Below are positions 5,325-52,366 of a stretch of DNA of 64,000 nucleotides, piece by piece; the first letter of the stretch is position 1, and every line of letters begins with the position of its first letter. The DNA is taken from IMG/VR virus record IMGVR_UViG_3300037467_000752; one strand, given 5' to 3'. The translations under genes and the position numbers were made by a program. The DNA is from a virus (Duplodnaviria > Heunggongvirae > Uroviricota > Caudoviricetes). Below the pieces are notes generated by a model. The model was not told the origin of the DNA, made no database searches, and saw only the letters and a program-made list of their open reading frames with translations.

Positions 5325-5343
5325 CCAAGAAAGGAAGCAAGCA

Positions 5344-5805
5344 ATGGATGAGAACACATTTTCCGGGGCTTATGCCCGTAACACGGACCCCAGCACGTCG
5401 CATTGGGCTGCAAAGACGGTGGATGTCACTTACCTTGAAGGCGTGGTGCTGAATGCAATCAAGAAGTACCCGACGCTGGGCCTGACGCAAGACGAGTTGG
5501 TGGAGGTCACTGGCCTGCCCACGAACACCATTACACCGCGTTTCGCTACATTGCTGTCGAAGGGCCTCATCACTGCCGAAGGCACCCGTAAGGGCATCAG
5601 TGGCCGCAATCAACGTGTCCACCGTGGCGTGGCTGGTATCGCCGTGAACATTGCCCCGGAGCCTGCCAACAGCATCGTGCGTGAAATCGAGAACCGCCGA
5701 CAGGTGCGTGAAGCTACGGAACGAATCTCCCGGCTGAAGGAGGCTGCAGCGGCTGCTACGAGCGAAGCTGAAGCACTGGCGAAGCGGTACAACATCACTC
5801 TATGA
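5344..5805 (+). CDS. Hypothetical winged-helix DNA-binding protein
   Basis: Helix-turn-helix-like segment LTQDELVEVTGLPTNTITPRFATLLSKGLI and a C-terminal coiled coil. RBS gaaaggaag. Confidence 0.4.
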   Translation: MDENTFSGAYARNTDPSTSHWAAKTVDVTYLEGVVLNAIKKYPTLGLTQDELVEVTGLPTNTITPRFATLLSKGLITAEGTRKGISGRNQRVHRGVAGIAVNIAPEPANSIVREIENRRQVREATERISRLKEAAAAATSEAEALAKRYNITL

Positions 5806-5820: not shown

Positions 5821-6336
5821 ATGGCTGTGGAAGAAGTGGAGAAAATGGCTGGAATCCAGTCTAAGCCGCCTACTCAACTTGGCGTTGGCATCAATCCGAA
5901 GCAAGGCGCAGGCTCTGTGCAGCTTCCCATGTCGCTCGTTACTCCGTTGCTTCGTGCCAACATCGCTCTGGCGAAGTACAACGGCAAAGAAAAGTACGGC
6001 CTTGCCAACTTCATCGGCACGGAAGTGCTGATGTCCACATATCTCGATGCCATCTACCGCCACCTTGACAAGCTGTGTATGGGTGAGGAAGTGGACGAAT
6101 TGGATGGTGTGCCTCATATCGGCGCTATTGGCGCTGGGCTGGACATCATCTGTGCTGCCCGCGCTGCAGGAACGCTGGTGGATGACCGTGGACGTTGCGA
6201 CGGGCAACTGGAAGCCTACAAGGCTCTCACGCCGCTCGTGAAGCAACTGAAGGAACTTCACGCTGGCAAGAACCCTTATCACTACTACATGGTGAACAAG
6301 GAGAAAGACTTGCAAACAAAGAAGCAAGTGTGCTAG
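5821..6336 (+). CDS. Hypothetical protein
   Basis: RBS gaaggaaa present. No confident domain. Confidence 0.45.
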   Translation: MAVEEVEKMAGIQSKPPTQLGVGINPKQGAGSVQLPMSLVTPLLRANIALAKYNGKEKYGLANFIGTEVLMSTYLDAIYRHLDKLCMGEEVDELDGVPHIGAIGAGLDIICAARAAGTLVDDRGRCDGQLEAYKALTPLVKQLKELHAGKNPYHYYMVNKEKDLQTKKQVC

Positions 6337-7275: not shown

Positions 7276-7304
7276 TTGCAAGGAGTGTGGCTTCGTGCTA
7301 CACT
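7276..7304 (+). promoter_or_regulatory. Candidate promoter: TTGCAA, 17-nt spacer, TACACT
   Basis: Hexamers with a 17-nt spacer located 22 nt upstream of the HNH gene RBS. Confidence 0.35.
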
Positions 7305-7326
7305 CCTTTTTCATTTTGGAGGAAGC

Positions 7327-7869
7327 ATGGAAGAAGTGTGGAAGGATGTTGTTGGGTGGGAAGGTAGCTACGAAATCTCCAGCTTTGGAAGGCTCCGCTC
7401 CAAACCATTCCTGAAACGCGGCTGCGGACGTTCCGGGCCGTTCACATTCTGGACAAAGGAGCGCATACTAAAACCGTCCTTGAACGCAGACGGCTATGTA
7501 ATTTTCAGACTTCAGCGCGACGGTGTGAGGGAGAGTGAGGGAATACACAGACTGGTTGCCATTGCATTTTTGCCCAACCCGGACAACCTGCCAGAAGTCA
7601 ATCACAAGGACTCGGTAAGAAGCAACAATCATGCGGACAATCTGGAGTGGGTGACTAGCCAACAAAATGCGCGTCATGCATTCGACAGCGGTAATCGCAG
7701 TAACGCCAGAGAGCGTCATCCGAGGGCTGTGTTGAATGAGGACTTGGTGCGCAACATTCGTACCATGTATGCCGAGGGTGCGCGAGTTGTGGACATAGCT
7801 AGGGCGTTAGGGCTACAATACTGGACAGTAAGCCGGGTTGTACATAACAGAAATTGGAAGGAAAGATAA
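7327..7869 (+). CDS. HNH homing endonuclease (NUMOD4 plus HNH_3 type)
   Basis: NUMOD4-like segment WKDVVGWEGSYEISSFGRLRS. HNH motif NHKDSVRSNNHADNLEWVTSQQN. Its stop overlaps the polymerase ATG. Confidence 0.7.
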   Translation: MEEVWKDVVGWEGSYEISSFGRLRSKPFLKRGCGRSGPFTFWTKERILKPSLNADGYVIFRLQRDGVRESEGIHRLVAIAFLPNPDNLPEVNHKDSVRSNNHADNLEWVTSQQNARHAFDSGNRSNARERHPRAVLNEDLVRNIRTMYAEGARVVDIARALGLQYWTVSRVVHNRNWKER

Positions 7870-11582: not shown

Positions 11583-11888
11583 ATGAGAGGTTCCCATATA
11601 ACTATGAGCCACTTCGCCACACGGCGAGACTTCGAACAGGCGCAGGCCGATCACTCTGGCAAGAAGCTGGTGATGTATCATCCCCGTCCGGGTCTGGACT
11701 ACATCCAAGTGGGGCTGCGAGCTTCCGTGGTGCCTCTTGACCATCCGGACACTGTGTTCGTGACGAATGGGTACGAAGCCATCACGAGCGCCGTGCAATG
11801 GTACAACGAAGAAACGGGCGTGTTCGAAACGCTGAACAGCCGCTACGTTCCTAGCACTCTGGTGCAAGGGACGTTGGACCTTGGCTGA
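11583..11888 (+). CDS. Hypothetical protein
   Basis: RBS aaaggaaa. No domain assigned. Confidence 0.4.
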   Translation: MRGSHITMSHFATRRDFEQAQADHSGKKLVMYHPRPGLDYIQVGLRASVVPLDHPDTVFVTNGYEAITSAVQWYNEETGVFETLNSRYVPSTLVQGTLDLG

Positions 11889-12390
11889 CAGCGTACCCGC
11901 GTGGTTTGAACAGCTAGCAACTGACCGGCTGCGCTACGATGCAACATCCGGGCAGATACTGTTCAAGGTTGATTGCGGGAGGGCTAAGGCTGGAATAGTG
12001 GCAGACAAGCGGATGCCTAATGGATACCTGACGGTCAGGATTCAAAAAGATGGGGTCCGCGTTACAGTCTGTTCACACCGTATGGCTTGGTTCCTAGTTA
12101 CCGGAGCATGGCCCGCTGAAGAACTCGACCATATCAACAAGGTCCGGCACGACAACCGTATGGAGAATTTGCGCGAGTGCAACAGAAGTCTGAATGTAGT
12201 TCGGACTTTGCGCGAAGCAAGGACTCTCCCGCGAGGGGTTACGTGGGCAGGACACACGAACAAGACCAATCCGTATCTTGCTCAAATCGGCAACACGTAT
12301 ATCGGCTACTTCGGTACGCCAGAGGCTGCACATGCAGCGTATCTTGCTGCTTTTGAAAATAGGTATGGCTCTGAATGGAAGGAGTTTTGA
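11881..12390 (+). CDS. HNH homing endonuclease with an AP2 domain
   Basis: HNH_3 motif LDHINKVRHDNRMENLREC. AP2-like C-terminal segment RGVTW...YIGYFGTPEAAHAAY. Confidence 0.7.
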   Translation: MADSVPAWFEQLATDRLRYDATSGQILFKVDCGRAKAGIVADKRMPNGYLTVRIQKDGVRVTVCSHRMAWFLVTGAWPAEELDHINKVRHDNRMENLRECNRSLNVVRTLREARTLPRGVTWAGHTNKTNPYLAQIGNTYIGYFGTPEAAHAAYLAAFENRYGSEWKEF

Positions 12391-14062: not shown

Positions 14063-15070
14063 ATGAAGCGATTAGTATTCGATTTTGACTACCTTAAATA
14101 CAGCATAGCTTCCGTATGTGAAACCCGTAGCATCATTGCTACGCACATCGCCAGCGGCAAACAGAGGGAATTCCCCACGCGGACAGCCTTCTACGGCCAC
14201 TACAAGAAGAAGGATGGGGGTTGGCTTAGGCAGCTTAACGACGAACGAGCTAAGGATGGAAAGAAGCCGTTCAAGGCCGAAGACTTCGACATCGCTGACA
14301 AGCAAGTGGCGCAACCTGTGTCGCACATGAACCAGATCGTGAAGCAGCACATTCACGGTATCTGCAATGCGCTGGGCACGTCAAGCTACTACGGCTACAT
14401 CGGCAAGGGCCAGTCGTGGCGAGTGAAGGCCAGCACGATCAAAGAGTACAAGGGCGACAGAAAAGAAACGCTCAAGCCTCTAATGCTGGATGAAATCGAG
14501 GACTATTTGAAACGAATGCACAAGGCCACGGAAGTGCGAGGGCTGGAGGCAGACGATCAAGTTGTCATTGATTGCACGGCAAATCAGAATCTTGTCCTTG
14601 TAGGCGTGGACAAGGATTACTACGGCTGCGACGGCATCACTCTGTACAACCCCGACAAGATGGATAGGCCGCAACGCATCGAAGGACTGGGCAAGCTGTG
14701 GGCTGACGGCAAGGGCAACGTGCGTGGAGAAGGCCGCAAGTTCTTCTACTTCCAAATCCTCTCTGGCGACGACTCCGACTGCTATTGGGCCAACTCGGCC
14801 TCCGACATTAAGTGGGCTGACAAGAGCGCGTTCAAGGTGCTGGACGAGTGCAAGACGGACAAGGAATGCTGGAACGCCATCCTTGATACCTACAAGATGC
14901 TCTACCCGGAGCCGAAGGAAATCACGGGCTGGCGTGGGGACAAGTTTACGGTGGATGCAAAGTATGTGCTGAAAGAAAACTGCACCATGGCACACATGTT
15001 GCGCAAGCCCGATGACAAGTTCGACCTTGACAAAGTGCTGGAGGAACACGGCCTTGCCCACAAACTCTAA
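14063..15070 (+). CDS. 5'-3' exonuclease or flap endonuclease (PIN-like 53EXO)
   Basis: N-terminal LVFDFDYLKY segment resembles the start of Pol I-type 5' nucleases. Acidic metal-site motif GLEADDQVVIDC. Start 14048 versus 14063 is uncertain. Confidence 0.55.
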   Translation: MKRLVFDFDYLKYSIASVCETRSIIATHIASGKQREFPTRTAFYGHYKKKDGGWLRQLNDERAKDGKKPFKAEDFDIADKQVAQPVSHMNQIVKQHIHGICNALGTSSYYGYIGKGQSWRVKASTIKEYKGDRKETLKPLMLDEIEDYLKRMHKATEVRGLEADDQVVIDCTANQNLVLVGVDKDYYGCDGITLYNPDKMDRPQRIEGLGKLWADGKGNVRGEGRKFFYFQILSGDDSDCYWANSASDIKWADKSAFKVLDECKTDKECWNAILDTYKMLYPEPKEITGWRGDKFTVDAKYVLKENCTMAHMLRKPDDKFDLDKVLEEHGLAHKL

Positions 15071-15644
15071 GCCGAAACCCAAGCCGTGGCTCATTGAAGG
15101 CAATCCGTGGAAGACGGAAGCCAAGTTTCTTGCGTGGGTGCGTGGAGTGCTGCGTAAGGGCTGGAGTCGTCACCCTATCAAGGTAATGTTCCTGAACGCT
15201 ACGCGAAAGCGTATCCCGAACCCAAGCCCGAAGAACGCTGTCCGCTTTCCTGAAGTGTGGGGGTGTCGGTGTGCAGAGTGTGGGGACATGTTTCCGCAGA
15301 AGGACATTGAGGTTGACCACATCGATGCAGCCGGGGGCTTCAAAGACCTTAGCCAGTTGGGTGAATGGGCAGAACGGCTCTACCTAGTGGACTTCGACAG
15401 CATCCGTGCAGTGTGCAAGCCCTGTCACAAAATCAAGAGCTACGCGGAACGCATGAACATTACGTTCGAAGAAGCCAGGGGAGTTAAGAAGGCTATCGAG
15501 TACATGAAGCAAGCTAGCAGCGCAAAACAGCTTGAGTTGCTTGCCAGATTCGCGTACAATGGAGCTTCAGTAAGCACGGTTGCAAAGCGACGTGTTTTGT
15601 TTGAAACCATCTTTAAGGAGAATCACAATGCAGACTGTGCCTGA
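15012..15644 (+). CDS. HNH-superfamily zinc-binding nuclease-like protein
   Basis: Motif CRCAECG...VDHIDA...CKPCHKIKS fits the CxxC...DH...CxxCH pattern. Overlaps the upstream gene by 59 nt, so the start is uncertain. Confidence 0.4.
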   Translation: MTSSTLTKCWRNTALPTNSKPKPKPWLIEGNPWKTEAKFLAWVRGVLRKGWSRHPIKVMFLNATRKRIPNPSPKNAVRFPEVWGCRCAECGDMFPQKDIEVDHIDAAGGFKDLSQLGEWAERLYLVDFDSIRAVCKPCHKIKSYAERMNITFEEARGVKKAIEYMKQASSAKQLELLARFAYNGASVSTVAKRRVLFETIFKENHNADCA

Positions 15645-17290: not shown

Positions 17291-17574
17291 TCGCCGCACA
17301 ACTGATGTTCGCCAACTTGCCGCTGTATGTCATGGCTATCTCAGAGGGTAAAGAAGTTGCCATCGTGAGGGCTGGTTCATTTCACCCGTTTTGGGATGAC
17401 GGTGAGCCGCCTGCGTTGTTTGACCAAAGGGGCTTTTTCATAGGTGGCCTAGAAGATGGGCGGAGTTATGAGTACGACAAGACATACAAGCTGGACGAGT
17501 GCCCTGCACTTGAGCAGTGGCTCCGACGCCAACATTTTTCGTTGGTGAACATGAGCGAAGTAGTAAAGGTTTAA
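17287..17574 (+). CDS. Hypothetical protein
   Basis: GTGA overlap start. No domain assigned. Confidence 0.4.
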   Translation: MIAAQLMFANLPLYVMAISEGKEVAIVRAGSFHPFWDDGEPPALFDQRGFFIGGLEDGRSYEYDKTYKLDECPALEQWLRRQHFSLVNMSEVVKV

Positions 17575-17588
17575 AGAAAGGAAAGACG

Positions 17589-18095
17589 ATGAGTAAAATT
17601 TGCATGGAATCGCTGTGGGCTTCTTACGAGAACATCCGCACGATGAACACCATCACTGGAAATCTTTCCGCCAGTGCTGGAATCGAGAAGGGCTTTGACA
17701 ACAAGCTGGATAGCCAACTTAGCTTTGTGTTTGAAGAACTGACGGAAGGCATCGATGCGTTGGAGCAAGGGGATGCACACAACTTCGGCAAGGAAGTAGT
17801 AGACATTTGGGTGACGGTGTGCGGCTTGATGCAGATCGCAGAGGCTGCGGGCTATGACATTGAAGAAAACATGCGCTACGTGGACTCCAACAACCTCGCT
17901 AAGTTTCCTTCGGAAATGCCGCGTGAAGTGCCGGAAGATTGCCACCGTGTTGTGCACAACGAAGAATTCAACCGCTTCGCTATCCTGCGCCGGGATGGGA
18001 AGTTCCTGAAGCCGAGGGGTTGGAAGAAGATTGACCCGAAGACGCTGAAGGCACCTGAAGGTATTTTTGCAAATCGTGAAGGAGCGCAGGCATGA
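17589..18095 (+). CDS. MazG-like nucleoside triphosphate pyrophosphohydrolase
   Basis: Segment ELTEGIDALEQGDAHNFGKEVVDIWVTVCGLMQIAEAAGYDIE matches the MazG EExxE/D helical motif. RBS aaagaaaggaaag. Confidence 0.5.
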   Translation: MSKICMESLWASYENIRTMNTITGNLSASAGIEKGFDNKLDSQLSFVFEELTEGIDALEQGDAHNFGKEVVDIWVTVCGLMQIAEAAGYDIEENMRYVDSNNLAKFPSEMPREVPEDCHRVVHNEEFNRFAILRRDGKFLKPRGWKKIDPKTLKAPEGIFANREGAQA

Positions 18096-18799: not shown

Positions 18800-21613
18800 A
18801 TGGACATTTCCCAACAAGTCTTCAGTGACATCATCATTTACAACAAGTACGCCAAATACATTCCCGCCCTCAAGCGCCGCGAAACGTGGGAGGAAATCTG
18901 TGATCGCAATGCAGCGATGCACCTGAAGAAGTTCCCGCAGCTTGAGGACAGCATCCGAGCCGTGTATACGGATTACGTCAAGACTAAGAAGGTGCTCCCG
19001 TCCATGCGATCCATGCAATTCGGCGGGCGTCCCATTGAACTCAACCACACAAGAATCTACAACTGCTGCCTACTCCCCGTGGACAATGTAGTGGCCTTTG
19101 GTGAAACCATGTTCCTGCTGCTGGGAGGCACAGGCGTAGGCTACAGCGTGCAGAAGCATCATATTGAAAAGCTGCCCGTCATCCAAGGACCGAAGACCAC
19201 ACGCAGGCGCTACCTTGTCTCCGATTCGATTGAAGGCTGGGGCGACGCGGTGAAGATGCTCCTGAAGGCGTACGCAGAGGGCAGGGCCAACCCTGATTTT
19301 GATTTTCGCGATATCCGTCCGAAGGGTGCCACGCTGGTAACTGCTGGCGGCAAGGCTCCCGGCCCGGAACCCCTGCGCATCTGTCTGGAAAATCTCCGCA
19401 CGGTGTTGAATGGGGCTGTCGGTCGCAAGCTGACGACGCTGGAGTGCCATGATATGCAGTGTCACATTGCCGATGCTGTCCTTTCTGGAGGTATCCGCCG
19501 TGCAGCCATGATCGCGTTCTTCAGCCATGACGACCTTGACATGGTGACTTGCAAGAGCGGTGCATGGTGGGAACTGAACCCCCAGCGCGGGCGTGCGAAC
19601 AACTCCGCTGTGTTGCACAGGGATGAAATCGATCAAGACGCATTTCAACGTCTGTGGCAGAGAGTTGAAGAGTCTAACGCGGGGGAGCCGGGCGTCTATT
19701 GGACTAACGATAAGGAGATTCTGAGCAACCCGTGCTTTAGGGGCGATATGGAACTGCTTACCTCCGAAGGCTACAAACGAATCGATAGCCTCGTGGGTAA
19801 GGAATTCCTCAACGTCAATAAGGACGGCAACCTCACCGCTGGCAAGGTGTGGTCCACTGGCGTAAAGCCTGTTGTGGAAGTCCGCTTTCGTCACAGCAGG
19901 GCCGGAAGGAAGCCTAGCCTGTACGTCACACCCAATCACACATTCATGCTGAATGACGGAACGGAGTGCGAGGCTAAAGACTTGGCAGGTAAGCGGCTTA
20001 TGCCTTACTTTACCGGCAAGGCTATTCCTCGCGTTCAAGAAGATTTCAAAGCTGGCTTCATGCTCGGCGATGCGTGCCTGACGGACGCTGCAAATCCTGA
20101 CAAGGCTGGAATTGTGGTGTGCATTGGCGAGAATGACGTAGAAGTAGCGGACATTTTTGGGGTCACCCTGTCAGACAACCATCGGCATTACCTCCAATCT
20201 GCCAGATCGCTTGTGGACAAGTATGGCTTGCCCGTTACACAGACGTTTGATAGGCAGCTTGGTGATAACCGCAGTGACGACTTCCTCATGGGTCTGTACT
20301 CTGCAAACGGGTGTGTGATTGCATCTGGTAAACGTGTTGCTCTCAAGACGACATCTAAGTTGCTTGCACAGCAAGTAGTTGAGTGGCTGCAGGCCAAAGG
20401 AATGACGCCGTATGTGACGACAAATAAGGCGAAGCGGATTCAATGGCCTAACGGAGAATACGAAAGCCGGGAGAGCTATGACGTTAACCTCGCTGGGCTT
20501 GAGAACCTGATTCGGTTTGCGGAAGTCGTTTCGTTTGTGCATGGCTACAAGCGTGAAGCACTGGCACAAGCAATTCGCGAAAGCTCTCCTACTGTTTCGG
20601 CTGTTCTGTCGGCGGGGGAAGCTGAAGTGTTTGACTTCACTGAGCCTGAAACTCATTGGGGCATCGTCAATGGCGTTGTTGCGCACAACTGTGTCGAGGC
20701 TACGTTGCGAATGTTCTCGTTCTGCAACCTTACTACGGTTAACGCATCGGATGTCGAGACGCAAGATGAGTTGAACAAACGAGTAGCCGCTGCTACCCTC
20801 ATCGGCACTCTGCAAGCATCCTATACAGACTTCCACTATCTGCGGGATGAATGGAAGAAGGTTACGGAAGAAGACGCCCTTATCGGTGTGTCCATGACGG
20901 GCATCGGCTCTGGCAGGGTGTTGAAACTGGACTTGACGGAAGCCGCACGCATTGTGGTGACAGTGAACAAGGATGTGGCATCGCTAGTCGGCATTAATAC
21001 GGCTGCTCGGACCTCGCTTCTCAAGCCTGAAGGCACTGCCTCTATCGTGGTGGGCTCTTCATCTGGCATCCATGCATGGCACGCTCCGTTCTACCGTCGC
21101 CGTATGCGCCTTGGAAAGAACGAGCCGCTGTACGCCTACGTGAAGGCCAACTTCCCGGAGCTTGTGGAGGATTGCCACTTCAAACCGCACCTTGAAGCCG
21201 TGCTGACGATTCCGCAGAAAGCTCCCGAGGGCTCCATCTTGCGCGATGAGTCGTTCTTGGATTTGCTGGAGCGTGTTCGCAGGTTCAATCAGGAGTGGAT
21301 TGCTCCGGGCCATAATCGCGGCGTGCAGAAGCACAACGTATCTTGCACCATCAGCCTGAAGCCTGACGAGTGGGAAGCCTGCGGTGAGTGGATGTGGAAG
21401 CATCGCAACGAGTACAACGGCATCAGCGTGTTGCCTTATGACGGTGGGACGTACATCCAAGCGCCGTTCGAAGACTGCACGGAAGAAGAGTACAATGCGA
21501 TGATGTCGCTGCTTCATAGCATCGATCTTACGCAGGTGATTGAAACCGACGACGCTACGGGCTTTACGCAGGAAGCGGCCTGTGCTGGCGGCCAATGCGA
21601 GGTTATCCTGTAA
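18800..21613 (+). CDS. Ribonucleotide reductase large subunit interrupted by an intein
   Basis: RNR active-site context EPGVYWTND...SNPC, resuming as VEATL; the spliced product reads SNPCVEATL. C-terminal CAGGQC redox pair. No beta-subunit gene lies adjacent, so a class II single-chain enzyme is suggested. Confidence 0.75.
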   Translation: MDISQQVFSDIIIYNKYAKYIPALKRRETWEEICDRNAAMHLKKFPQLEDSIRAVYTDYVKTKKVLPSMRSMQFGGRPIELNHTRIYNCCLLPVDNVVAFGETMFLLLGGTGVGYSVQKHHIEKLPVIQGPKTTRRRYLVSDSIEGWGDAVKMLLKAYAEGRANPDFDFRDIRPKGATLVTAGGKAPGPEPLRICLENLRTVLNGAVGRKLTTLECHDMQCHIADAVLSGGIRRAAMIAFFSHDDLDMVTCKSGAWWELNPQRGRANNSAVLHRDEIDQDAFQRLWQRVEESNAGEPGVYWTNDKEILSNPCFRGDMELLTSEGYKRIDSLVGKEFLNVNKDGNLTAGKVWSTGVKPVVEVRFRHSRAGRKPSLYVTPNHTFMLNDGTECEAKDLAGKRLMPYFTGKAIPRVQEDFKAGFMLGDACLTDAANPDKAGIVVCIGENDVEVADIFGVTLSDNHRHYLQSARSLVDKYGLPVTQTFDRQLGDNRSDDFLMGLYSANGCVIASGKRVALKTTSKLLAQQVVEWLQAKGMTPYVTTNKAKRIQWPNGEYESRESYDVNLAGLENLIRFAEVVSFVHGYKREALAQAIRESSPTVSAVLSAGEAEVFDFTEPETHWGIVNGVVAHNCVEATLRMFSFCNLTTVNASDVETQDELNKRVAAATLIGTLQASYTDFHYLRDEWKKVTEEDALIGVSMTGIGSGRVLKLDLTEAARIVVTVNKDVASLVGINTAARTSLLKPEGTASIVVGSSSGIHAWHAPFYRRRMRLGKNEPLYAYVKANFPELVEDCHFKPHLEAVLTIPQKAPEGSILRDESFLDLLERVRRFNQEWIAPGHNRGVQKHNVSCTISLKPDEWEACGEWMWKHRNEYNGISVLPYDGGTYIQAPFEDCTEEEYNAMMSLLHSIDLTQVIETDDATGFTQEAACAGGQCEVIL
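19733..20689 (+). other. Intein (319 aa) with a LAGLIDADG homing endonuclease, inserted at the RNR active site
   Basis: Starts with the Cys of CFRGDMELLTSEGYK. Block B TPNHTFML. Ends VVAHN, followed by the +1 Cys. Two LAGLIDADG-like motifs (GFMLGDACL and FLMGLYSANG). Confidence 0.7.
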
Positions 21614-21867: not shown

Positions 21868-21880
21868 CACTACTGGACGG

Positions 21881-21918
21881 CTGAGGCACACTGCGTGCTT
21901 CAGTCGTTTTTTTTTTTT
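21881..21918 (+). terminator. Strong intrinsic terminator
   Basis: Stem CTGAGGCAC-actgc-GTGCTTCAG (9 bp with one G-U pair), followed by TCG and 12 T residues. Confidence 0.7.
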
Positions 21919-22913: not shown

Positions 22914-23239
22914 AAAATCTGCTTAGCAAGTACAGCCCCAGCGTTCACGCGGTGGCAGTGAAGCGGTTGATCGAACTGCGTGACGGTGCTACTGCCAGAA
23001 GCGCAACTGCTGGCATTTGCAAGGACATCGCGTTCGCCTTCATCGCCAATGGCATCCACCTTGGCGAAGAACCTGTGGACTCTGGCTACGACTACTGCCG
23101 AGACGTGTTCCGCGATATGGACCTGCCTGATGACCCGCTCGATTACGGTGTCCACCTTATGTGGGAAGGCGAAGCAGGGACAACTCGTCGTGCGTTTGCG
23201 GGCGAAATGGCTGCACATATTCAGGAGAACTACCTGTGA
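22910..23239 (+). CDS. Hypothetical protein
   Basis: RBS aaggagagaag. No domain assigned. Confidence 0.45.
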   Translation: MKNLLSKYSPSVHAVAVKRLIELRDGATARSATAGICKDIAFAFIANGIHLGEEPVDSGYDYCRDVFRDMDLPDDPLDYGVHLMWEGEAGTTRRAFAGEMAAHIQENYL

Positions 23240-24060
23240 TCGACCTGTACATCCACGGTCGCAAGGTGCCTGTCACGTGGAAGCGATTCCCCGGTGGCGA
23301 AACGCTCGTGCGTATCGAGACTCCGCAAGCTGGCGTGGACCTCGGCGCACGCATCGTCATGCGCTTCGAAGGCAACGATGACCTGTTCAATCTCGCCTTG
23401 CTCGTGGACGCCATCCGTCGCAATGTGAATGTGGGCCGAATCACGTTGGACATGCCCTACCTTCCCTACGCACGTCAGGATCGTGTGTGCAGCCCCGGCG
23501 AATCACTTAGCGTGAAAGTTGCGTGCGACTTCATCAACAGTCTTAAGTTCGATGCTGTGTTCGTGAAGGACATCCACTCTGAAGTTGGCGTTGCGTTACT
23601 GGATAATCTGCGGCACATGACCCAAGCGGATGCTGCCTTCTGGTTTACCGGAGCCCTGCGCCGCGATGAAACAGTGCTAGTGAGCCCGGATGCCGGGGCC
23701 AACAAGAAGGTGCTGACGTTCGCCAAGGAACACTCCTTCGATGACGTGGTGCGTGCAGACAAGCTGCGCGACACTCGCACGGGAGCAATCCTTGACACCA
23801 TCGTGTACAGCGAACATATCGGCAGCAGAAACTTCCTCATCTTGGACGACATCTGCGATGGCGGCAGAACGTTCGTGGAACTTGCGAAGAAGCTGCGACC
23901 TCTGACGGAAGGGAAGATTTTCCTGTACGTCACGCACGGCATCTTCTCGGCTGGCGTGGATGTTTTCAACGGCATCGTTGATCGCATCTACGTCACGAAC
24001 TACATGGGCAAGGCTGCAGACTCCCTGCATCCACTCATCATCAGCAACCACAACAAGTAA
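23236..24060 (+). CDS. prs: Ribose-phosphate pyrophosphokinase (PRPP synthetase)
   Basis: Motif ITLDMPYLPYARQDRV matches the diagnostic Prs motif. PRPP-binding loop ILDDICDGGRT. GTGA overlap start. Confidence 0.8.
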   Translation: MIDLYIHGRKVPVTWKRFPGGETLVRIETPQAGVDLGARIVMRFEGNDDLFNLALLVDAIRRNVNVGRITLDMPYLPYARQDRVCSPGESLSVKVACDFINSLKFDAVFVKDIHSEVGVALLDNLRHMTQADAAFWFTGALRRDETVLVSPDAGANKKVLTFAKEHSFDDVVRADKLRDTRTGAILDTIVYSEHIGSRNFLILDDICDGGRTFVELAKKLRPLTEGKIFLYVTHGIFSAGVDVFNGIVDRIYVTNYMGKAADSLHPLIISNHNK

Positions 24061-24075
24061 GAAAGGACAGAAACA

Positions 24076-25731
24076 ATGTTCAACATCTTCCCTCCCCACG
24101 CCTGTGACTTCTACAAGACCGGGCATATCTACCAATACGTGCCCGGCACGCAACAGGTGTACTCCAACTTCACGGCCCGAGCAGCAACGCACGCACGGAT
24201 GCCCAAGGAGTGGGACGGCAAAGTGGTGTTCTTCGGCCTGCAGGCAATGGTCAAGGGCTTCTTGATCGACCAGTGGAACCGCGAGTTCTTCGACAAGCCC
24301 AAGCACAAAGTCGTCGCACGCTACACCCGTCGCATGGACGCGGCGCTGGGTGCTGGCGTGGTGACTTCCGAACACATTGCAGCCCTGCACGATCTTGGCT
24401 TCCTGCCTGTCATCGTCAAGGCCCTGCCGGAAGGCTCCCGTGTGAACCTGAAGGTGCCGCTGTTCACGGTGACGAACCATCCCAACTACCCGGAGTTCTT
24501 CTGGCTGACGAACTATCTGGAGGATGCGTTCTCGGCTGAATGCTGGAAGCCTATCACTGTGGCTACCATCGCCTACGAGTTCCGCCGAATCCTACGCAAG
24601 TGGCAGGAAATCACGGGCTCTGCCCCGCAGTTCGTGGATTGGCAGCTTCACGACTTCTCCATGCGTGGACTCGATGGCCTGATGGCGGCTGGCCCCACGG
24701 GCGGTGCACACATGGCTGCAACGGGCTACGGCACGGACAACATCCTTGCCCTCGATTGGCTGGAGGAATACTACAACGCCGATGCGGAGTTCGAACTGCT
24801 TGGCGGGGGCGTTCCGGCTACGGAGCACAGCGTCATGTGCATGGGTGGCAAGGAAGATGAGAAGGAAACTTTCCGCCGCCTGATGGCTCGCTACCCCACT
24901 GGCATCTTGTCTATCGTGTCCGACACGTGGGACTTCTGGAAAGTCATCACGCAAACGGCGCTGGAACTGAAGGATGAAATCCTCGCACGACAACCCGATG
25001 CGCTGGGCAATGCCAAGCTGGTGTTCCGCCCCGATTCGGGCGACCCGGTGAAGATCATCACGGGCCTGACGTACAAGGAAATCCAAAGCCTTGACGACTA
25101 CGATGATGTCAATGGCGAGGAAGTGGTGAAGTACGAAGGCAAGTTCTACGAGTACGAAGTGGATTACCACTACAGCTATGACGACTCGTGGCCCACGGGT
25201 ATCACACTCGGCAAGGAAGTGCCTGAGCATGTCGTCAAGGGTGCTGTGGAGTGCCTGTGGGACATCTTCGGTGGTGACACCAATGAGAAGGGCTACAAGA
25301 CGCTGAATCAGCGTGTGGGCCTCATCTACGGTGACAGCATCACGTTGGACCGGGAGGAAGCCATCCTCAGCCGCCTTGCGGCCAAGGGCTTCAGCGCAGG
25401 CAACCTCGTGTTCGGCATCGGCAGCTTCACGTACCAATACGTGACGCGGGACACCTTCGGCATGGCAATGAAGGCAACGTTCGGCGTGGTGGAGGGTGAA
25501 GACCGCGAACTGTTCAAAGACCCAGCTACGGGTGACGGCATGAAGAAGTCTGCTAAGGGCTTGCTGCGTGTGGAGAAGGAGGGCGACAACTTCGTCCTCT
25601 ACGACCAGCAGACGCGAGAGCAAGAAGCGCAAGGCGCACTGGAAACCGTCTTCTACTGCGGCTCGCTGCACAGGGATGAGAAGTACGAAACCATTCGGTA
25701 TCGGCTTGGCATCACCACTATCAAGTTTTAA
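24076..25731 (+). CDS. nadV: Nicotinamide phosphoribosyltransferase (NAMPT, NadV-like)
   Basis: 551 aa with the NAMPT/PBEF family architecture. N-terminal DFYKTGH, GTDNIL, TEHSVM and C-terminal GSLHRD-type regions. RBS gaaaggacag. Confidence 0.8.
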   Translation: MFNIFPPHACDFYKTGHIYQYVPGTQQVYSNFTARAATHARMPKEWDGKVVFFGLQAMVKGFLIDQWNREFFDKPKHKVVARYTRRMDAALGAGVVTSEHIAALHDLGFLPVIVKALPEGSRVNLKVPLFTVTNHPNYPEFFWLTNYLEDAFSAECWKPITVATIAYEFRRILRKWQEITGSAPQFVDWQLHDFSMRGLDGLMAAGPTGGAHMAATGYGTDNILALDWLEEYYNADAEFELLGGGVPATEHSVMCMGGKEDEKETFRRLMARYPTGILSIVSDTWDFWKVITQTALELKDEILARQPDALGNAKLVFRPDSGDPVKIITGLTYKEIQSLDDYDDVNGEEVVKYEGKFYEYEVDYHYSYDDSWPTGITLGKEVPEHVVKGAVECLWDIFGGDTNEKGYKTLNQRVGLIYGDSITLDREEAILSRLAAKGFSAGNLVFGIGSFTYQYVTRDTFGMAMKATFGVVEGEDRELFKDPATGDGMKKSAKGLLRVEKEGDNFVLYDQQTREQEAQGALETVFYCGSLHRDEKYETIRYRLGITTIKF

Positions 25732-25747
25732 CAACGAAAGGAAGAAA

Positions 25748-27064
25748 ATGACGAAGCAATTCAAGAATTATGTCGGCTTTGCCGATGACCACTCGGGTTC
25801 GATGGGGACGCTGGCAAATGCTGCCATCCGCGATTCCAACGCGAACACTCAAGCCATCCGCGAAGCTGCCAGCCGTGAAATGCTGGATACCATCGTATCG
25901 GCTGTGGACTTCGGCAGTAAGGTTACTCGTCGCATTGTCAACAGCAACCCGCACGTGCTGAAGCCTGTGACGCAATGGCCTGTTGCTGGCATGACAGCGA
26001 TGTACGATGCCATTGGCGACCTCATCACTCTGTTTGAATCCCTGCCGGATGCAAACGAGCCCCACGTGTCGTTCCTTATCATGGTGACGACTGACGGGCA
26101 AGAGAACCAATCGGTGCGTTGGAACCGCTCGATGCTGGCCCGCAAGATCGCAGAGCTTCAGCAGACGGAGCGTTGGACTTTTGTGTTCCGTGTTCCGCGT
26201 GGTGCACGCGGGTATCTTGAGGGCCTGAACATCTATCCCGGCAACATCCAAGAGTGGGATACAACGGATGCAGGCATGGCGCAATCTACCGTGCAGACGA
26301 AGACGGCTATCGACACGTTTTATGCGACTCGTGCGGCTGGCAAGCGCGGCTCCAACGTGTTCTACGCTGACGCTCAGAGCGTGACGGCACAAACCGTCCA
26401 AGCCACGCTCACGGACGTTTCCAAGGAAGTGAGCATTTGGGGTGTGCTGCCTACTGAAGACGGCGAGGAAATCCAACCGTGGGCTATGAAGCGCCTTGCC
26501 GGTGCGCCGTTCCTGAAGGGTGCTGCGTTCTACCAACTGACGAAAACGGAAGCCCGCGTGCAAGACGGCAAGCTCATTGCCATCCGCGACAAGGCCAACG
26601 GCAAGGTGTACAGCGGTGACGCAGCACGCCAACTGCTGAACATGCCTGTGCGTTCGCCCAAGGGTTATGTGCGCCTGCATCCCGACGCCACGCCACAGTT
26701 CGACATCTTCATCCAGTCCACGTCTATCAACCGCAAGCTGGTAGCAGGCACGAGCGTGCTGTACTGGCCTGCCAAGGGTACGGGCTTCACGGCTGCGGAC
26801 TTCCCGTGGCTGGCTAACGGTCAAGCCAAGCCGGACGATGCGCTGACGCAACGCGCTGTGGCACTCGTGGGCCAGTCTGCCGTGGCCGCTGTGCAAGCAA
26901 CTGCCCCGGCGAGCAGCCCGGTGAAGCTGGCGTTGGCTGCGGCTTTGCAACGGAAGTTCTTCACCACGCGGGACGAAGGGCGCGACCATGCTCGAAAGAC
27001 TGGCAAGGTACTCCGGGATGCTGGTCCTACGGCTCCCCGTAACCTTCGCTGGTACGTGATTTAA
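25748..27064 (+). CDS. vWA-domain protein with a C-terminal region of unknown function
   Basis: vWA MIDAS motifs DHSGSMGT, TAMYDAI and VTTDGQEN in the N-terminal 200 aa. About 230 aa of unassigned C-terminal sequence. RBS gaaaggaagaaa. Confidence 0.6.
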   Translation: MTKQFKNYVGFADDHSGSMGTLANAAIRDSNANTQAIREAASREMLDTIVSAVDFGSKVTRRIVNSNPHVLKPVTQWPVAGMTAMYDAIGDLITLFESLPDANEPHVSFLIMVTTDGQENQSVRWNRSMLARKIAELQQTERWTFVFRVPRGARGYLEGLNIYPGNIQEWDTTDAGMAQSTVQTKTAIDTFYATRAAGKRGSNVFYADAQSVTAQTVQATLTDVSKEVSIWGVLPTEDGEEIQPWAMKRLAGAPFLKGAAFYQLTKTEARVQDGKLIAIRDKANGKVYSGDAARQLLNMPVRSPKGYVRLHPDATPQFDIFIQSTSINRKLVAGTSVLYWPAKGTGFTAADFPWLANGQAKPDDALTQRAVALVGQSAVAAVQATAPASSPVKLALAAALQRKFFTTRDEGRDHARKTGKVLRDAGPTAPRNLRWYVI

Positions 27065-27067
27065 TTC

Positions 27068-27096
27068 TTGACAAGCTCGGCAGGCAGTGCTACACT
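27068..27096 (+). promoter_or_regulatory. Sigma70-like promoter: TTGACA, 17-nt spacer, TACACT
   Basis: Lies immediately after the vWA gene stop. Same architecture as the other promoters. Confidence 0.5.
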
Positions 27097-27122
27097 GCTT
27101 GCTTCTTACAAAGGAAGAAAAG

Positions 27123-27284
27123 ATGTTTGGACTGTTCAAGAGCGTCACAGACGTAGTGGCGAAGGTGGCTGAAGTGGCCCTTACCCCTGTGGAAGTGGTT
27201 GCTGACGTTGCCAACGCCGTACTGGAGCCCGTGGTGGATGCAGCCCGTGTTGTCAAGGACGAAGTGAAAGAACTTACGAAGTAA
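27123..27284 (+). CDS. Hypothetical small protein (53 aa)
   Basis: RBS aaaggaagaaaag. Val/Ala-rich and helical. Confidence 0.35.
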   Translation: MFGLFKSVTDVVAKVAEVALTPVEVVADVANAVLEPVVDAARVVKDEVKELTK

Positions 27285-27285
27285 G

Positions 27286-27534
27286 GTGTCCTACTACCAA
27301 CTCGCAACGGACTTGCTTCTTAAGGGCGTCCGGGTTGCTGCAATCGAGGCCGACTACGGCCTTGTGTTCAGGCAGGGTAAGGGTGTAGACGACATTCTGC
27401 ACGCTGTCAAGAAGGTTCGTGACCCCAAGATCGGGCGAGCGAAGATCGAAACTGAAATTGGGATGTTGGAGGTCTACTTGAAGAGTATCCTCAAGCATCC
27501 GAAGAAGGAAGGTAATGGCTCTGAAGATCGTTGA
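27286..27534 (+). CDS. Hypothetical protein (82 aa)
   Basis: GTG start after the previous stop. Confidence 0.4.
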   Translation: MSYYQLATDLLLKGVRVAAIEADYGLVFRQGKGVDDILHAVKKVRDPKIGRAKIETEIGMLEVYLKSILKHPKKEGNGSEDR

Positions 27535-27973
27535 GGGCGACTTATTCGCTAACGTGAAGCCGCCTGCGCTAATCGTGCACGGCTGCAACGCACAAGGGAA
27601 GATGGAGAGTGGGTTTGCAGGCAAGCTGCGGAACAAGTTCCCCGATGCCTACAAAATCTACAAGACGGCTGAAGAGGCCCACGGGTTGATGCTGGGTGAC
27701 ATCAACGGCTACACGGACACGGACGGCCACATCATCGTCAACGCCATCACGCAAGAGTTCTACGGCAACGACAAGAGCATTGTCTACGTAGACTACGAAG
27801 CAGTGGAAAAGGCCCTGAGCACTGTGGCCCGATTCGCTGCCCAACTGCCGGGAGGCATTCCCATCCATCTACCGTTCATCGGTGGCGGGCTGGCGAATGG
27901 CAACCGGGACAAGCTGCTAGAGATTTTCGAACGTGTCTTCAAAGACTCCGACGCAACACTCTGGCTTCAATAA
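27515..27973 (+). CDS. Macrodomain protein (ADP-ribose binding or hydrolysing; MacroD/YmdB-like)
   Basis: N-terminal GDLFANVKPPALIVHGCNAQGKMESGFAGKL and C-terminal HLPFIGGGLANG match macrodomain signature regions. RBS gaagaaggaagg. Confidence 0.6.
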   Translation: MALKIVEGDLFANVKPPALIVHGCNAQGKMESGFAGKLRNKFPDAYKIYKTAEEAHGLMLGDINGYTDTDGHIIVNAITQEFYGNDKSIVYVDYEAVEKALSTVARFAAQLPGGIPIHLPFIGGGLANGNRDKLLEIFERVFKDSDATLWLQ

Positions 27974-27993
27974 CTGTACAAGAAAGGAAACTT

Positions 27994-28236
27994 ATGCTCT
28001 TTTTTATCATGCTGGGCGTGGTTGTCGCCCTTACCATCCTCTTTGGCTTCGCAGGGGCCGAAGCAGGCTTAGGGGGCTGCCTCATCGGTCTTTGGACCGC
28101 TGGAATTGTCGGCTGGGTAGCGAACATCGTTGCCATCTGGCACGGCCCTGCGTTGGCTGCGTTTGGCGTACAGGACATTCTTCGCGTCATCGGCATTGTC
28201 GTTGCGCCGATTGGCGTTGTGCTGGGTTACATCTAA
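27994..28236 (+). CDS. Small integral membrane protein (two TM helices)
   Basis: Almost entirely hydrophobic 80-aa protein. RBS aaagaaaggaaa. Confidence 0.45.
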   Translation: MLFFIMLGVVVALTILFGFAGAEAGLGGCLIGLWTAGIVGWVANIVAIWHGPALAAFGVQDILRVIGIVVAPIGVVLGYI

Positions 28237-28376
28237 CCCACTACCACCAATCAACCAGACCTGTCAATAGGTCAGTTTACTAGGAGTTTCAAATCAGCAA
28301 CGAAAACGTAACAGTTGGCGATGTCACCATTGTCCCAGCAGAGCTAAGGAGCTACACTGACGACAGTTTCCGAATC

Positions 28377-28987: not shown

Positions 28988-29023
28988 AAAAAAAAAAAAG
29001 ACGCACCCCCGAAGGAGTACGTC
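28988..29023 (-). terminator. Strong intrinsic terminator for the minus-strand operon
   Basis: On the minus strand the stem is GACGUACUCC-UUCG-GGGGUGCGUC (10 bp with two G-U pairs and a UUCG tetraloop), followed by 12 U residues. Marks the convergence point of the + and - transcription units. Confidence 0.7.
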
Positions 29024-29134
29024 CAAAGCTCTACCACGAGCTAAAACTTACACTTAATTGTGGCCGTCAGGCCATCGACCTCGCTCAGCTTGACCATGAC
29101 TAAATCGTGGGCTTGACTGGCGAGGTCTTTTACG

Positions 29135-51811: not shown

Positions 51812-51812
51812 G

Positions 51813-51887: not shown

Positions 51888-51946
51888 AAATAAGGCAAGC
51901 AACCGAAGTTGCCGCGTCTGCCAGCCGGAAGCTAGCAGGGATGTTC

Positions 51947-52362: not shown

Positions 52363-52366
52363 CAAA

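Follow-up and report, generated by a model that had tools for sequence, protein, structure and literature searches.

A probable Adpp-like macrodomain protein downstream of the NARP1 genes of a Caudoviricetes phage

The NARP1 locus and the genes that follow it

The window analysed here is the whole 64,000-nucleotide stretch of a Caudoviricetes virus genome (IMG/VR record IMGVR_UViG_3300037467_000752). A megablast search with positions 23000-28300 against deposited phages returned no match; this phage has no close cultured relative. The genes and features on which the present analysis is based are listed below, with positions counted along the window.

21875-21909, plus strand: terminator-like hairpin upstream of the block that contains the NARP1 and macrodomain genes (consensus scan only)
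23236-24060, plus strand: predicted Adps (ADP-ribose pyrophosphokinase, PRPS-like; NARP1 enzyme 1), matching PHROG 619 at 1.4e-80 and homologous to Gary Adps
24076-25731, plus strand: predicted Namat (nicotinamide ADP-ribose transferase, Nampt-like; NARP1 enzyme 2), from phmmer against the PDB and homology to Gary Namat
25748-27064, plus strand: vWA/MIDAS protein of 438 aa between Namat and the macrodomain gene, with an unmatched C-terminal half; PHROG 26613 (unknown function)
27123-27284, plus strand: small ORF of 53 aa from its ATG (65 aa from a GTG at 27087), with a weak PHROG 9123 match
27286-27534, plus strand: small ORF of 82 aa overlapping the start of the macrodomain gene by 20 nt; PHROG 25399, 7.5e-7
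27515-27973, plus strand: macrodomain gene, an ATG-to-TAA ORF of 152 aa; putatively Adpp-like, Gln-type TARG1/ALC1 class
28999-29024, minus strand: convergent terminator-like hairpin where the plus-strand block meets minus-strand lysis and tail genes

The genes at 23236 and 24076 had been described in the initial annotation as the NAD-salvage genes Prs and NAMPT. Judged by homology, they are Adps and Namat, the enzymes of the phage NAD+ reconstitution pathway NARP1, a counter-defence system, and not ordinary salvage enzymes. Adps probably begins with the GTG at 23236, which shares bases with the preceding stop codon (GTGA); an ORF of maximal length would begin at 23161. The predicted protein is 35% identical (E 2e-45) to the validated Adps of Vibrio phage Gary. 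Only 19 residues follow its last aligned position, versus 42 in E. coli PRPS; this short C-terminus fits the absence of the alpha11-alpha12 module reported as the signature of Adps (PMC13586617). Namat follows after 15 nt, and its product matches the SPbetaL1 Namat structures 9W5X/9W5W with a phmmer E-value of 5e-134, versus 4e-55 for the best canonical Nampt. It is 43% identical (E 1e-124) to the validated Gary Namat, and the Namat clamp residues R40/F392/Y396 align to R/F/Y in the window protein ('GIGSFTYQY').

Downstream of Namat and on its strand, the macrodomain gene comes fourth; it starts 1,783 nt past the Namat stop codon with three ORFs between them, so that its original placement downstream of Prs-like and NAMPT-like genes was accurate. 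The published definition of a NARP1 operon with an associated macrodomain ("NARP1-AP") allows a distance of at most two genes between the Macro gene and NARP1 (Osterman et al., bioRxiv 10.64898/2026.01.28.702374), and the present gene lies outside this limit because of these three ORFs and 1,783 nt. The first of them encodes the 438-aa vWA protein, which has no Pfam match, at least 903 unnamed homologues and the invariant residues D14/S16/S18; its structure model (pLDDT 87) matched integrin I-domains and vWA domains in Foldseek over the N-terminal ~200 residues. The vWA gene co-occurs with the macrodomain gene in the same phage lineage and is considered here a putative module member only.

The plus-strand block ends with the macrodomain gene and three further small ORFs, beyond which the minus-strand lysis and tail genes begin. 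A consensus scan predicted no plus-strand terminator-like site between the hairpins at 21875-21909 and 28999-29024, which is weak evidence, as the total number of sites falls below the shuffle expectation. A single sigma-70-like site (27068-27096) falls in the interval that separates the vWA gene from the small ORFs. Since the counts of both promoter and terminator sites are at or below shuffle expectation, no conclusion on an operon is drawn. The macrodomain gene would presumably be co-expressed with NARP1. Among the window ORFs scanned, no ART, SIR2, Nudix, NMNAT, NADAR, Tpt1, RNA ligase or PNKP was found.

Fold and class of the macrodomain protein

The ORF at 27515-27973 is a real gene. In a large protein collection 244 proteins are homologous to its product at E<=1e-3, 1,249 deposited phage records carry homologues, and the N-terminus of the product agrees with the family consensus 'MxLxIxxGDLF'. 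A Pfam-A hmmscan gave no Macro match (PF01661, PF14519, PF20016) at E<=1, which reflects the sensitivity of the models and is no argument against a macro fold; PF01661 is precomputed for many of the homologues, including many at 40-50% identity. A Phage_tail_X match in the same scan (E 0.097) was discounted as due to chance. The protein does match PHROG 335 (1.4e-36), the macro region of DarG in PADLOC (9e-8) and, by phmmer against the PDB, SCO6735 of Streptomyces coelicolor (5e3b, 1.2e-7) and BT1257 (2fg1, 2e-7).

The AlphaFold2 model (mean pLDDT 96.9, pTM 0.91) is a compact alpha/beta/alpha fold in which a single domain of 152 aa makes up the whole protein. Used as a Foldseek query, this model matched BT1257 (E 9.5e-12, TM 0.81), DarG (E 3.6e-10, TM 0.80), the yeast ADPR-1''P phosphatase Poa1p (E 7.8e-10, RMSD 2.4 A and the top TM-score, 0.84), TARG1 (E 8e-10, TM 0.79) and SCO6735 (E 1e-9, TM 0.78), scores within one order of magnitude that have no power to split phosphatases from glycohydrolases. 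MacroD/YmdB-type and viral macrodomains ranked lower. The macrodomain proposed from the sequence alone is therefore borne out by PHROG, phmmer, PADLOC, the structure model and Foldseek, and the subfamily check suggested at that time, by HMM and structure, assigns the modelled protein to the TARG1/ALC1-like class of the macrodomain superfamily and not to a different alpha/beta fold.

JGI calls the identical protein 'O-acetyl-ADP-ribose deacetylase (regulator of RNase III)'; this name, given automatically in the style of COG labels, was rejected as a specific assignment. YmdB (5cb3) appeared at Foldseek rank 33 (TM 0.74, 14% identity), and the phmmer search of the PDB at E<=10 found no YmdB or MacroD chain. 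Note also that PDB entry 5m3i, deposited as an 'RNase III inhibitor', is the DarG of M. tuberculosis, with an E-value of 0.22 to the window protein.

Conserved residues and characterised relatives

The key residues of the protein are H22, N25, Q80 and the glycine-rich loop 122-IGGGLANG-129. Among 120 family members H22 and N25 are each at least 90% conserved, and Q80 is invariant. Reader-only macrodomains are numerous, and sponges for nucleotide signals are frequent in phages, which speaks for a non-catalytic ADP-ribose binder that would sequester ADPR-derived signals or protect ADPR. We consider such a role extremely improbable, given that the catalytic residues of the relatives are nearly invariant in this family and that every one of the closest characterised relatives is a hydrolase.

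Some 15% of NARP1 operons include a gene for a Macro-domain ADPR-1''-phosphate phosphatase, Adpp. In the case of phage Gary, this protein was shown to produce ADPR from ADPR-1''P and is needed to overcome the RES-domain defence aRES, an arrangement first described in a 2026 preprint (bioRxiv 10.64898/2026.01.28.702374). The Gary protein (KNV71_gp137 / GARY_182) resembles the window protein in being a single macrodomain of ~150-160 aa whose gene shares the strand of Adps and Namat, in having the same PDB neighbours (TARG1, SCO6735, BT1257), and in carrying Gln at the position of the TARG1 Lys and an 'IGxGLAxG' loop. Its H24 and N27 align with H22 and N25, and the substitutions H24A and N27A abolish Gary Adpp function (Table S4, Osterman et al., bioRxiv 10.64898/2026.01.28.702374). 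The two proteins differ in that they are only 26% identical (E 4e-8) and fall into separate subclades, and in that the Gary gene lies between Adps and Namat, whereas the window gene comes fourth after Namat, past the vWA gene and two small ORFs. Gary Adpp is the only Adpp tested biochemically, and its distance counts against reading the window protein as Adpp-like.

The nearest NARP1-embedded relatives in the literature are the macrodomains of the RYC/Barba type (Vibrio phage RYC; Rheinheimera phage Barba19A; Table S1, bioRxiv 10.64898/2026.01.28.702374), which share 'N(C/A)QGKMxSGxA...PxAYxxYK' with the window protein. RYC Adpp is 36% identical to it (E 2e-21), and the RYC-type diphosphate loop reads 'MGCDRAGG' versus 'IGGGLANG'.

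Poa1p (PDB 6LFQ/6LFR) has the chemistry proposed here and the highest TM-score; it differs in its marginal sequence similarity (E 0.02, ~20% identity) and its role in tRNA splicing. From the phmmer range (query 6-62, chain 10-67) and the Poa1p sequence, the structurally probed Poa1p residues H23, S30 and F152, for which mutant PDB entries exist, would correspond to H22, K29 and A127, so that only the His is conserved; Gary Adpp is likewise without S30 and F152, having R30 and A there. Position 29 is variable in the family. The presence of Poa1p among the top structural matches is also compatible with RNA-repair housekeeping, in which the phage protein would, like yeast Poa1p, clear ADPR-1''P/Appr>p arising when Tpt1-type enzymes remove 2'-phosphates following tRNA repair, independently of any NAD+-depletion defence. 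In one relative (L055) a window-type macrodomain gene is followed by genes for a metallophosphoesterase, an RNA ligase and PNKP, and in Gary RNA ligase genes lie near the NARP1-AP operon. Such a role is very improbable for the window protein, as RNA ligase, PNKP and Tpt1 were not found among the window ORFs scanned, and it would go unexplained why numerous phages have a macrodomain gene inserted between Adps and Namat.

Among solved structures, SCO6735 and BT1257 are the best sequence and fold matches of the window protein. Both are Gln-type ALC1-like proteins that have in common Gln at the catalytic-Lys position and an Asn locking this Gln, and their pairwise E-values (3e-13 for SCO6735, 3e-11 for BT1257) place them nearer to the window protein than Gary Adpp (2e-7), which also counts against the Adpp-like reading. 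SCO6735 strips ADP-ribose from DarT-modified thymidine DNA and from proteins and rescues DarT toxicity. As it is the closest characterised sequence relative, and as Q80 and N25 align with its functional residues Q85 and N27, the window protein could be a de-ADP-ribosylase of macromolecules, its proximity to NARP1 being only a clustering of counter-defence genes. The DarG matches in PADLOC and NCBIfam point in the same direction, as does the existence of a phage macrodomain that acts as an anti-DarT2 factor (AdfM, PhiKZ gp104), and in one relative (L005) a NADAR gene (DarG1-type domain) directly follows Namat, suggesting an ADP-ribosylation counter-defence cluster.

Several observations render this alternative unlikely, if still worth considering. 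Q80 occupies the position of the catalytic Lys of DarG2 (K80), AdfM (K78) and TARG1 (K84), and the match to the NCBIfam equivalog antitoxin_DarG reaches 22 bits against a cut-off of 250, over profile positions 2-130 of 338; as a single domain of 152 aa, the protein also lacks the C-terminal domain with which DarG binds DarT. At the positions of the SCO6735-specific Val/Ile25, whose backbone positions the catalytic water, and of the DNA-binding Lys89, the window protein has G23 and G84, both glycines being invariant or no less than 90% conserved in its family. The repeated insertion of the family inside NARP1 operons would also be left unexplained. SCO6735 itself is a cellular, DNA-damage-regulated protein without NARP1 context. 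The DarG2 macrodomain and AdfM belong to the same fold class (TM 0.80-0.82), and AdfM is, in addition, a phage-encoded single macrodomain with a counter-defence role; however, they differ from the window protein in their catalytic Lys, in having DNA as target and in their missing linkage to NARP1, and AdfM (pairwise E 2e-6) has Thr at the position of H22. Reversal of DarT-catalysed DNA ADP-ribosylation in the manner of DarG, the role first named in the initial annotation, has thus lost ground, in view of the invariant Gln in place of Lys and of the 22 versus 250 bits.

Two further comparisons were dropped. Net charge does not discriminate DNA binding from small-molecule binding, as AdfM acts on DNA and yet matches the window protein in acidity (-6 vs -4), and ICP1 AdfB, which at 77 aa mimics the DarG C-terminus and is no enzyme, was rejected as an anti-DarT macrodomain comparator. 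The validated Adpp is itself Gln-type with the same PDB neighbours, so that similarity to SCO6735 cannot separate the two roles; Adpp and SCO6735 share one Gln-type branch within the TARG1/ALC1 class, and the substrate is consequently not assignable from sequence or fold alone.

Association with NARP1 and the proposed reaction

Window-type macrodomains (42% identical) occur within or abutting the core NARP1 operons of otherwise unrelated phages, with the gene order Adps-Macro-Namat in one relative (L049) and Macro-Adps-Namat in another (L064). Relatives with 60-70% identical macrodomains keep the order Adps-Namat-...-Macro while the intervening genes change, and one relative has the order Adps-vWA-Macro, with Namat not detected. 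All members of the window clade in an NJ tree whose context is testable are NARP1-linked, the window protein and Gary Adpp falling in different subclades. NARP1 was found within 10 kb of 15 of the 80 macrodomain loci sampled; conversely, 15 of 80 Namat loci have a macrodomain gene within 10 kb, every one on the Namat strand. After de-replication, a macrodomain gene is present at 8 of 46 Namat clusters, versus a genome-wide baseline of 2.5% (P ~2e-5). Most of the linked relatives belong to one syntenic phage lineage, and part of the linkage may for this reason be inherited gene order.

Approximately 80% of the family members sampled lack NARP1 at distances of up to 10 kb, which, together with the fourth position of the window gene after Namat, 1,783 nt away, counts against an accessory role. 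The jumbo phages RaK2, K64-1 and phiM12 were checked for NARP1 elsewhere in their genomes, a candidate explanation for their unlinked homologues that was rejected; they are listed as carrying NARP2 (Nmnat-associated Nampt). The family is thus broader than NARP1-AP and not exclusively a feeder of NARP1.

Taken together, the NARP1 neighbours, the published Adpp precedent, homology, H22/N25, the Poa1p fold match, gene context and enrichment suggest that the window protein is probably an Adpp-like macrodomain hydrolase, accessory to phage NARP1 NAD+ reconstitution, and thus of a kind already known. The same reading draws on the fact that no other ADP-ribose-related partner was found among the window ORFs scanned, and on the precedent of RyDEP, the RyR-domain glycosidase in the NARP1 operon of phage DyoEdafos; RyDEP has an unrelated fold and different substrates (2'cADPR and 3'cADPR), and is alike as an accessory that makes linear ADPR for Adps and Namat. 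The role in ADP-ribose or NAD turnover originally suggested from gene position was right in this respect, and processing of ADPR-1''-phosphate, at first one of several listed roles, is now the favoured one, already published for relatives.

By analogy with these relatives, the protein most likely turns ADPR-1''-phosphate into ADP-ribose for use by Adps and Namat. The defence countered would be of the type of aRES, in which RES-domain NAD+ phosphorylases cleave NAD+ to nicotinamide and ADP-ribose-1''-phosphate, a product that Adps is unable to use. The window protein would bind ADPR-1''P in the canonical ADP-ribose cleft, with the first-loop residues H22 and N25, with Q80 to position the distal ribose and with the loop 122-IGGGLANG-129 on the diphosphate, and would take off the C1'' group of the distal ribose to yield free ADP-ribose. 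Adps could then pyrophosphorylate ADPR to ADPR-PP, which Namat would join to nicotinamide, thus restoring NAD+.

A protein that feeds NARP1 could also produce free ADPR from another 1''-substituted ADPR made in defence and not from ADPR-1''P; candidates would be O-acyl-ADPR from sirtuin-type effectors, glycocyclic ADPR signals or other ADPR conjugates. The window protein belongs to a different subclade from the validated Gary type, and the 1''-side residues vary by subtype (at position 29 K in the window protein, R in Gary Adpp and S30 in Poa1p). Enzymes of the TARG1 class are known to release more than one kind of C1'' leaving group (glutamate esters, O-acyl groups and thymine), TARG1 PDB entries are titled 'O-acetyl-ADP-ribose deacetylase 1', and RyDEP is a NARP1 accessory acting on other ADPR derivatives. 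The sole tested NARP1-associated macrodomain is nevertheless an ADPR-1''P phosphatase, with functional His and Asn residues in common with the window protein, and we judge a different substrate to be rather improbable. It is similarly doubtful, if conceivable, that the macrodomain and vWA/MIDAS proteins form a distinct NARP1 accessory module, acting not on ADPR-1''-phosphate but on a novel defence-derived ADPR conjugate, or bifunctional, cleaning DarT-type ADPr-DNA and passing the released ADPR to NARP1.

Depleting NAD+ is among the commonest ways in which bacteria fight phages; of the phage responses to this depletion NARP1 is the commonest, and aRES and Adpp make up the next round of this NAD+ arms race. 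For annotation pipelines, the labels 'DarG-like' and 'O-acetyl-ADPR deacetylase' are unsuitable for genes of the present type, the practical value of the Adpp-like assignment being modest: a better annotation and a candidate for work on substrate range. The published survey was limited to two genes from NARP1 and a third macrodomain subtype is linked here at a looser distance, which suggests that NARP1-AP is undercounted. The phage lineage that carries the window-type macrodomain is widespread, with genomes of roughly 80-90 kb.

A conserved macrodomain gene beside Adps and Namat

The macro gene lies exactly where the initial annotation had placed it, with an ATG at 27515, a stop codon ending at 27973 and a product of 152 aa. 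It is a conserved gene, with 244 matches at E<=1e-3 in a collection of 5.8 billion protein sequences (among them an identical one encoded by an 87-kb metagenomic contig, and relatives spanning 86% to 40% identity); tblastn picks up homologues in 1,249 deposited phage records out of 50,697. Its predicted N-terminus agrees with the family consensus.

23236-24060, + strand, Adps (Prs-like protein)
24076-25731, + strand, Namat (NAMPT-like protein)
25748-27064, + strand, 438-aa vWA protein, directly after Namat
27515-27973, + strand, macrodomain protein

The two upstream neighbours had been taken for ordinary NAD-salvage genes, NAMPT and Prs, a description that does not hold. The NAMPT-like protein matches PDB 9W5X/9W5W, which show the SPbetaL1 phage enzyme Namat, a nicotinamide ADP-ribose transferase, in crystal form (PMC12774641), at E 5e-134, versus 4e-55 for the best canonical Nampt, and the clamp residues R40, F392 and Y396, which enforce ADPR-PP specificity in the SPbetaL1 enzyme (PMC12774641), have R, F and Y as their aligned counterparts here ('GIGSFTYQY'). 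It is 43% identical to the Namat of the Vibrio phage Gary operon (E 1e-124), which also carries an insertion at the place where about 50 residues of the window Namat (residues ~331-383) split its alignment to the SPbetaL1 structure. Gary Adps and the Prs-like protein share 35% identity (E 2e-45). For the latter, translation most plausibly starts at the GTG at 23236, which overlaps the upstream stop codon (GTGA) and gives 274 aa; 19 residues lie beyond the end of its alignment with E. coli PRPS, versus 42 in PRPS, and this short C-terminus agrees with the missing alpha11-alpha12 module reported as a signature of Adps (PMC13586617). The two genes are separated by 15 nt and constitute NARP1, the pathway that restores NAD+ using the ADPR and nicotinamide which NAD+-depleting defences leave behind. 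The initial intuition that the neighbours point to a role in NAD or ADP-ribose turnover was sound.

A system of this type was already described in 2026 (Osterman et al.). The RES-domain defence aRES cleaves NAD+ phosphorolytically to nicotinamide and ADPR-1''-phosphate, which Adps is unable to use; a Macro-domain gene lies within two genes of NARP1 in 15% of NARP1 phages, the Adpp of Vibrio phage Gary converts ADPR-1''P to ADPR in vitro, and overcoming aRES needs all three genes (bioRxiv 10.64898/2026.01.28.702374). The best-supported reading, which we consider probable, is that the window protein is an Adpp-like accessory of NARP1. The macrodomain would strip the 1''-phosphate left on ADPR by RES-type NAD+ phosphorylases, and the ADPR so freed would become a substrate for Adps and Namat. 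On this reading, the window macro belongs to the described system as a third sequence subtype with looser NARP1 linkage.

Fold, class and catalytic residues

The proposed macrodomain identity was borne out by profile, sequence and structure comparisons. PHROG 335 ('phosphatase') matches the protein at 1.4e-36; phmmer against PDB sequences retrieves SCO6735 (5e3b, 1.2e-7) and BT1257 (2fg1, 2e-7) and, more weakly, alphavirus nsP3 macrodomains (about 5e-3) and Poa1p (0.02); the DarG models of PADLOC (9e-8) and NCBIfam (22 bits versus a cut-off of 250) match over the macro region only. The AlphaFold2 model, built from a 120-sequence alignment, is a three-layer alpha/beta/alpha fold (mean pLDDT 96.9, pTM 0.91), for which Foldseek against the PDB returns Poa1p (TM 0.84, RMSD 2.4 A), BT1257 (TM 0.81), Thermus aquaticus DarG (TM 0.80), TARG1 (TM 0.79) and SCO6735 (TM 0.78), all with E of 1e-9 to 1e-11, and places MacroD/YmdB-type and viral macrodomains lower. 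Subfamily assignment by profile and structure, as initially suggested, thus makes the protein a macrodomain of the TARG1/ALC1-like class, although a Pfam-A scan of the protein gave no Macro match at E<=1; many homologues carry a precomputed Pfam Macro (PF01661) match. JGI labels the identical protein 'O-acetyl-ADP-ribose deacetylase (regulator of RNase III)', a generic name, the MacroD/YmdB-type structures ranking lower.

In the Macro protein set of Osterman et al. (Table S1, bioRxiv 10.64898/2026.01.28.702374), the entry from Vibrio phage RYC, numbered between the Adps and Namat genes of that phage, is 36% identical to the window protein (E 2e-21). Gary Adpp is 26% identical (E 4e-8), and its best PDB relatives, TARG1, SCO6735 and BT1257, form the same neighbourhood. 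The positions of the loss-of-function Adpp mutants H24A and N27A (Table S4, bioRxiv 10.64898/2026.01.28.702374) align with H22 and N25 of the window protein, and across the 120 aligned family members each is conserved to at least 90%; AdfM lacks the His and has Thr instead. Beside this conservation, we regard it as extremely unlikely that the protein is a non-catalytic binder.

A DarG-like role, also listed initially, is less well supported by the residues. Where TARG1 (K84), DarG2 (K80) and AdfM (PhiKZ gp104, a phage anti-DarT2 factor; K78; PMC13309987) have their catalytic lysine, the window protein has Gln80, invariant across the family. It therefore lacks the feature that defines DarG2/AdfM and joins a Gln-type branch, with Gln also present in Gary Adpp, RYC Adpp, SCO6735 (Q85) and BT1257. 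To this branch belong Adpp, the validated phosphatase, and also SCO6735, which hydrolyses thymidine-linked ADPr-DNA and protein ADPr and for which Q85 and N27 are essential (PMC9411070). An SCO6735/DarG-like de-ADP-ribosylase acting on DNA or protein, to which this kinship would lend itself, nevertheless seems unlikely; the SCO6735-specific Val/Ile25 and DNA-binding Lys89 (PMC9411070) correspond in the alignment to G23 and G84. Adpp, SCO6735 and DarG2-type reactions all free ADPR by cleavage at the distal ribose C1'', from which it may reasonably be inferred that the Gln-type branch tolerates different leaving groups, with context choosing the physiological substrate. A NARP1 feeder with a different 1''-substituted ADPR substrate would fit such tolerance, and we rate it as quite unlikely beside the Adpp-like reading.

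NARP1 linkage among phages

Three relatives, with macros 70%, 65% and 60% identical, keep Adps-Namat-...-Macro in this order on one strand, immediately ahead of the convergent lysis and tail genes. The genes between Namat and Macro vary, being a vWA-like gene and two 79-aa ORFs in one relative, NADAR, 132-aa, vWA-like and HNH endonuclease genes in another, and four small ORFs in the remaining one. A forward scan found Adps and Namat within 10 kb at 15 of 80 IMG/VR homologue loci (36-50% identity), 2 more being cut by contig ends. The reverse scan with the window Namat found an adjacent Adps at 77 of 80 loci and a family macro within 10 kb at 15 of 80, all 15 on the Namat strand and located from between Adps and Namat to 3.6 kb away. 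With loci collapsed at 70% Namat identity, a macro occurs in 8 of 46 clusters, versus 2.5% of phage genomes with the family anywhere (binomial P about 2e-5). In a neighbour-joining tree without bootstrap, indicative only, the window clade is NARP1-linked in every member with testable context, NARP1-linked proteins also occur elsewhere (Gary/JG004 type, RYC/Barba type and loci L049, L055 and L064), and SCO6735 and BT1257 branch among the NARP1-linked types. L049 reads Adps-Macro-Namat and L064 Macro-Adps-Namat; both macros are of window type, with the window protein as best match (42% identity). L064 has no window ORF in common outside the NARP1-Macro module at the threshold used, and L049 lies outside the 45 loci richest in window ORFs.

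NARP1 is absent within 10 kb for roughly 80% of sampled homologues. The jumbo or large phages RaK2, K64-1 and phiM12 (deposited-phage matches H1-H6 and H13-H17) carry homologues 37-39% identical, and their Nampt is listed as Nmnat-associated, that is, NARP2 (Osterman et al., 2024); at the RaK2 locus no Adps or Namat was found within 10 kb of the macro gene. Given these homologues in NARP2 phages, the whole family is not a dedicated NARP1 feeder. Since the linked loci come mostly from one syntenic lineage of 80-90-kb phages, part of the linkage signal is shared ancestry. Counting from Namat, the window macro comes fourth, 1,783 nt downstream, which is beyond the two-gene criterion of the preprint. 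A promoter/terminator scan fits one transcription unit from ~21.9 kb to ~29.0 kb that may contain an internal promoter (27068-27096). The number of sites was not above that in shuffles, and the scan therefore carries little weight. No other ADP-ribose-related enzyme was found in a scan of the larger window ORFs, which covered those of the structural region in part.

Variant loci and the remainder of the window

For the 438-aa protein, at least 903 homologues were counted, none of them named or assigned a Pfam domain. The N-terminal ~200 aa fold as a vWA/integrin I-domain in which the MIDAS motif DxSxS (D14-x-S16-x-S18) is invariant; the C-terminal half gave no structural match. The gene lies between Namat and macro in about 18 loci of the window's phage lineage and is absent from sampled NARP1 loci without a macro.

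L055 (7642-13737) reads Adps, a 72-aa ORF, a vWA homologue, a window-type Macro, a Metallophos_2 phosphoesterase, an RNA ligase, a 183-aa ORF and PNKP, with PhoH and ClpP-like genes just upstream; the macro thus adjoins an RNA-repair set, and no Namat was detected within its 16.5 kb of sequence. That the macrodomain clears by-products of RNA repair is, in our view, very improbable. In L005 (carrying relative P0006), a NADAR-domain gene (PF08719, the ADP-ribosyl-guanine hydrolase domain of DarG1 type) at 5175-5594 immediately follows Namat, so that NARP1, NADAR and Macro cluster together, and an HNH/NUMOD4 homing endonuclease (7448-8014) is inserted just before the macro gene. L007 (carrying P0013) has an HD_4 gene (PF13328, RelA/SpoT-type HD hydrolase; 3928-4440) as the immediate upstream neighbour of Adps, and between Adps and Namat it has a 61-aa ORF. 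Two contigs of sibling samples, L004 (4483-7279) and L003 (4486-7476), are nearly identical; in L004, gene calling breaks Namat and vWA into several pieces, with the macro gene and its flanks intact, which could be due to assembly frameshifts or to real NARP1 decay with the macro kept.

The remainder of the window looks like a tailed phage, with primase-helicase, family A DNA polymerase, PhoH, ClpP, portal, terminase and 2,223-aa tape-measure-like genes, together with the following:

5821-6336, + strand, dATP/dGTP diphosphohydrolase N-terminal domain protein (PF18909), MazZ-like
17517-18095, + strand, MazG-domain protein
18800-21613, + strand, ribonucleotide-reductase-like large gene, 937 aa versus 617 aa in L003
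61089-61628, + strand, dCMP deaminase
51736-52711, - strand, five tRNA genes (Thr-TGT, Asn-GTT, Glu-TTC, Pro-AGG, Ala-TGC)
245-802, 7276-7869, 11881-12390 and 15012-15644, + strand, HNH-type homing endonuclease genes (at least four), replication module

The extra part of the ribonucleotide-reductase-like gene (residues ~323-630) matches Intein_splicing and LAGLIDADG_3, which suggests that it is interrupted by an intein with a homing endonuclease. PF18909, the MazZ-like family of Z-genome phages, together with MazG and dCMP deaminase suggests nucleotide-pool remodelling and possibly a modified base. One of the HNH genes stands directly before the DNA polymerase gene.
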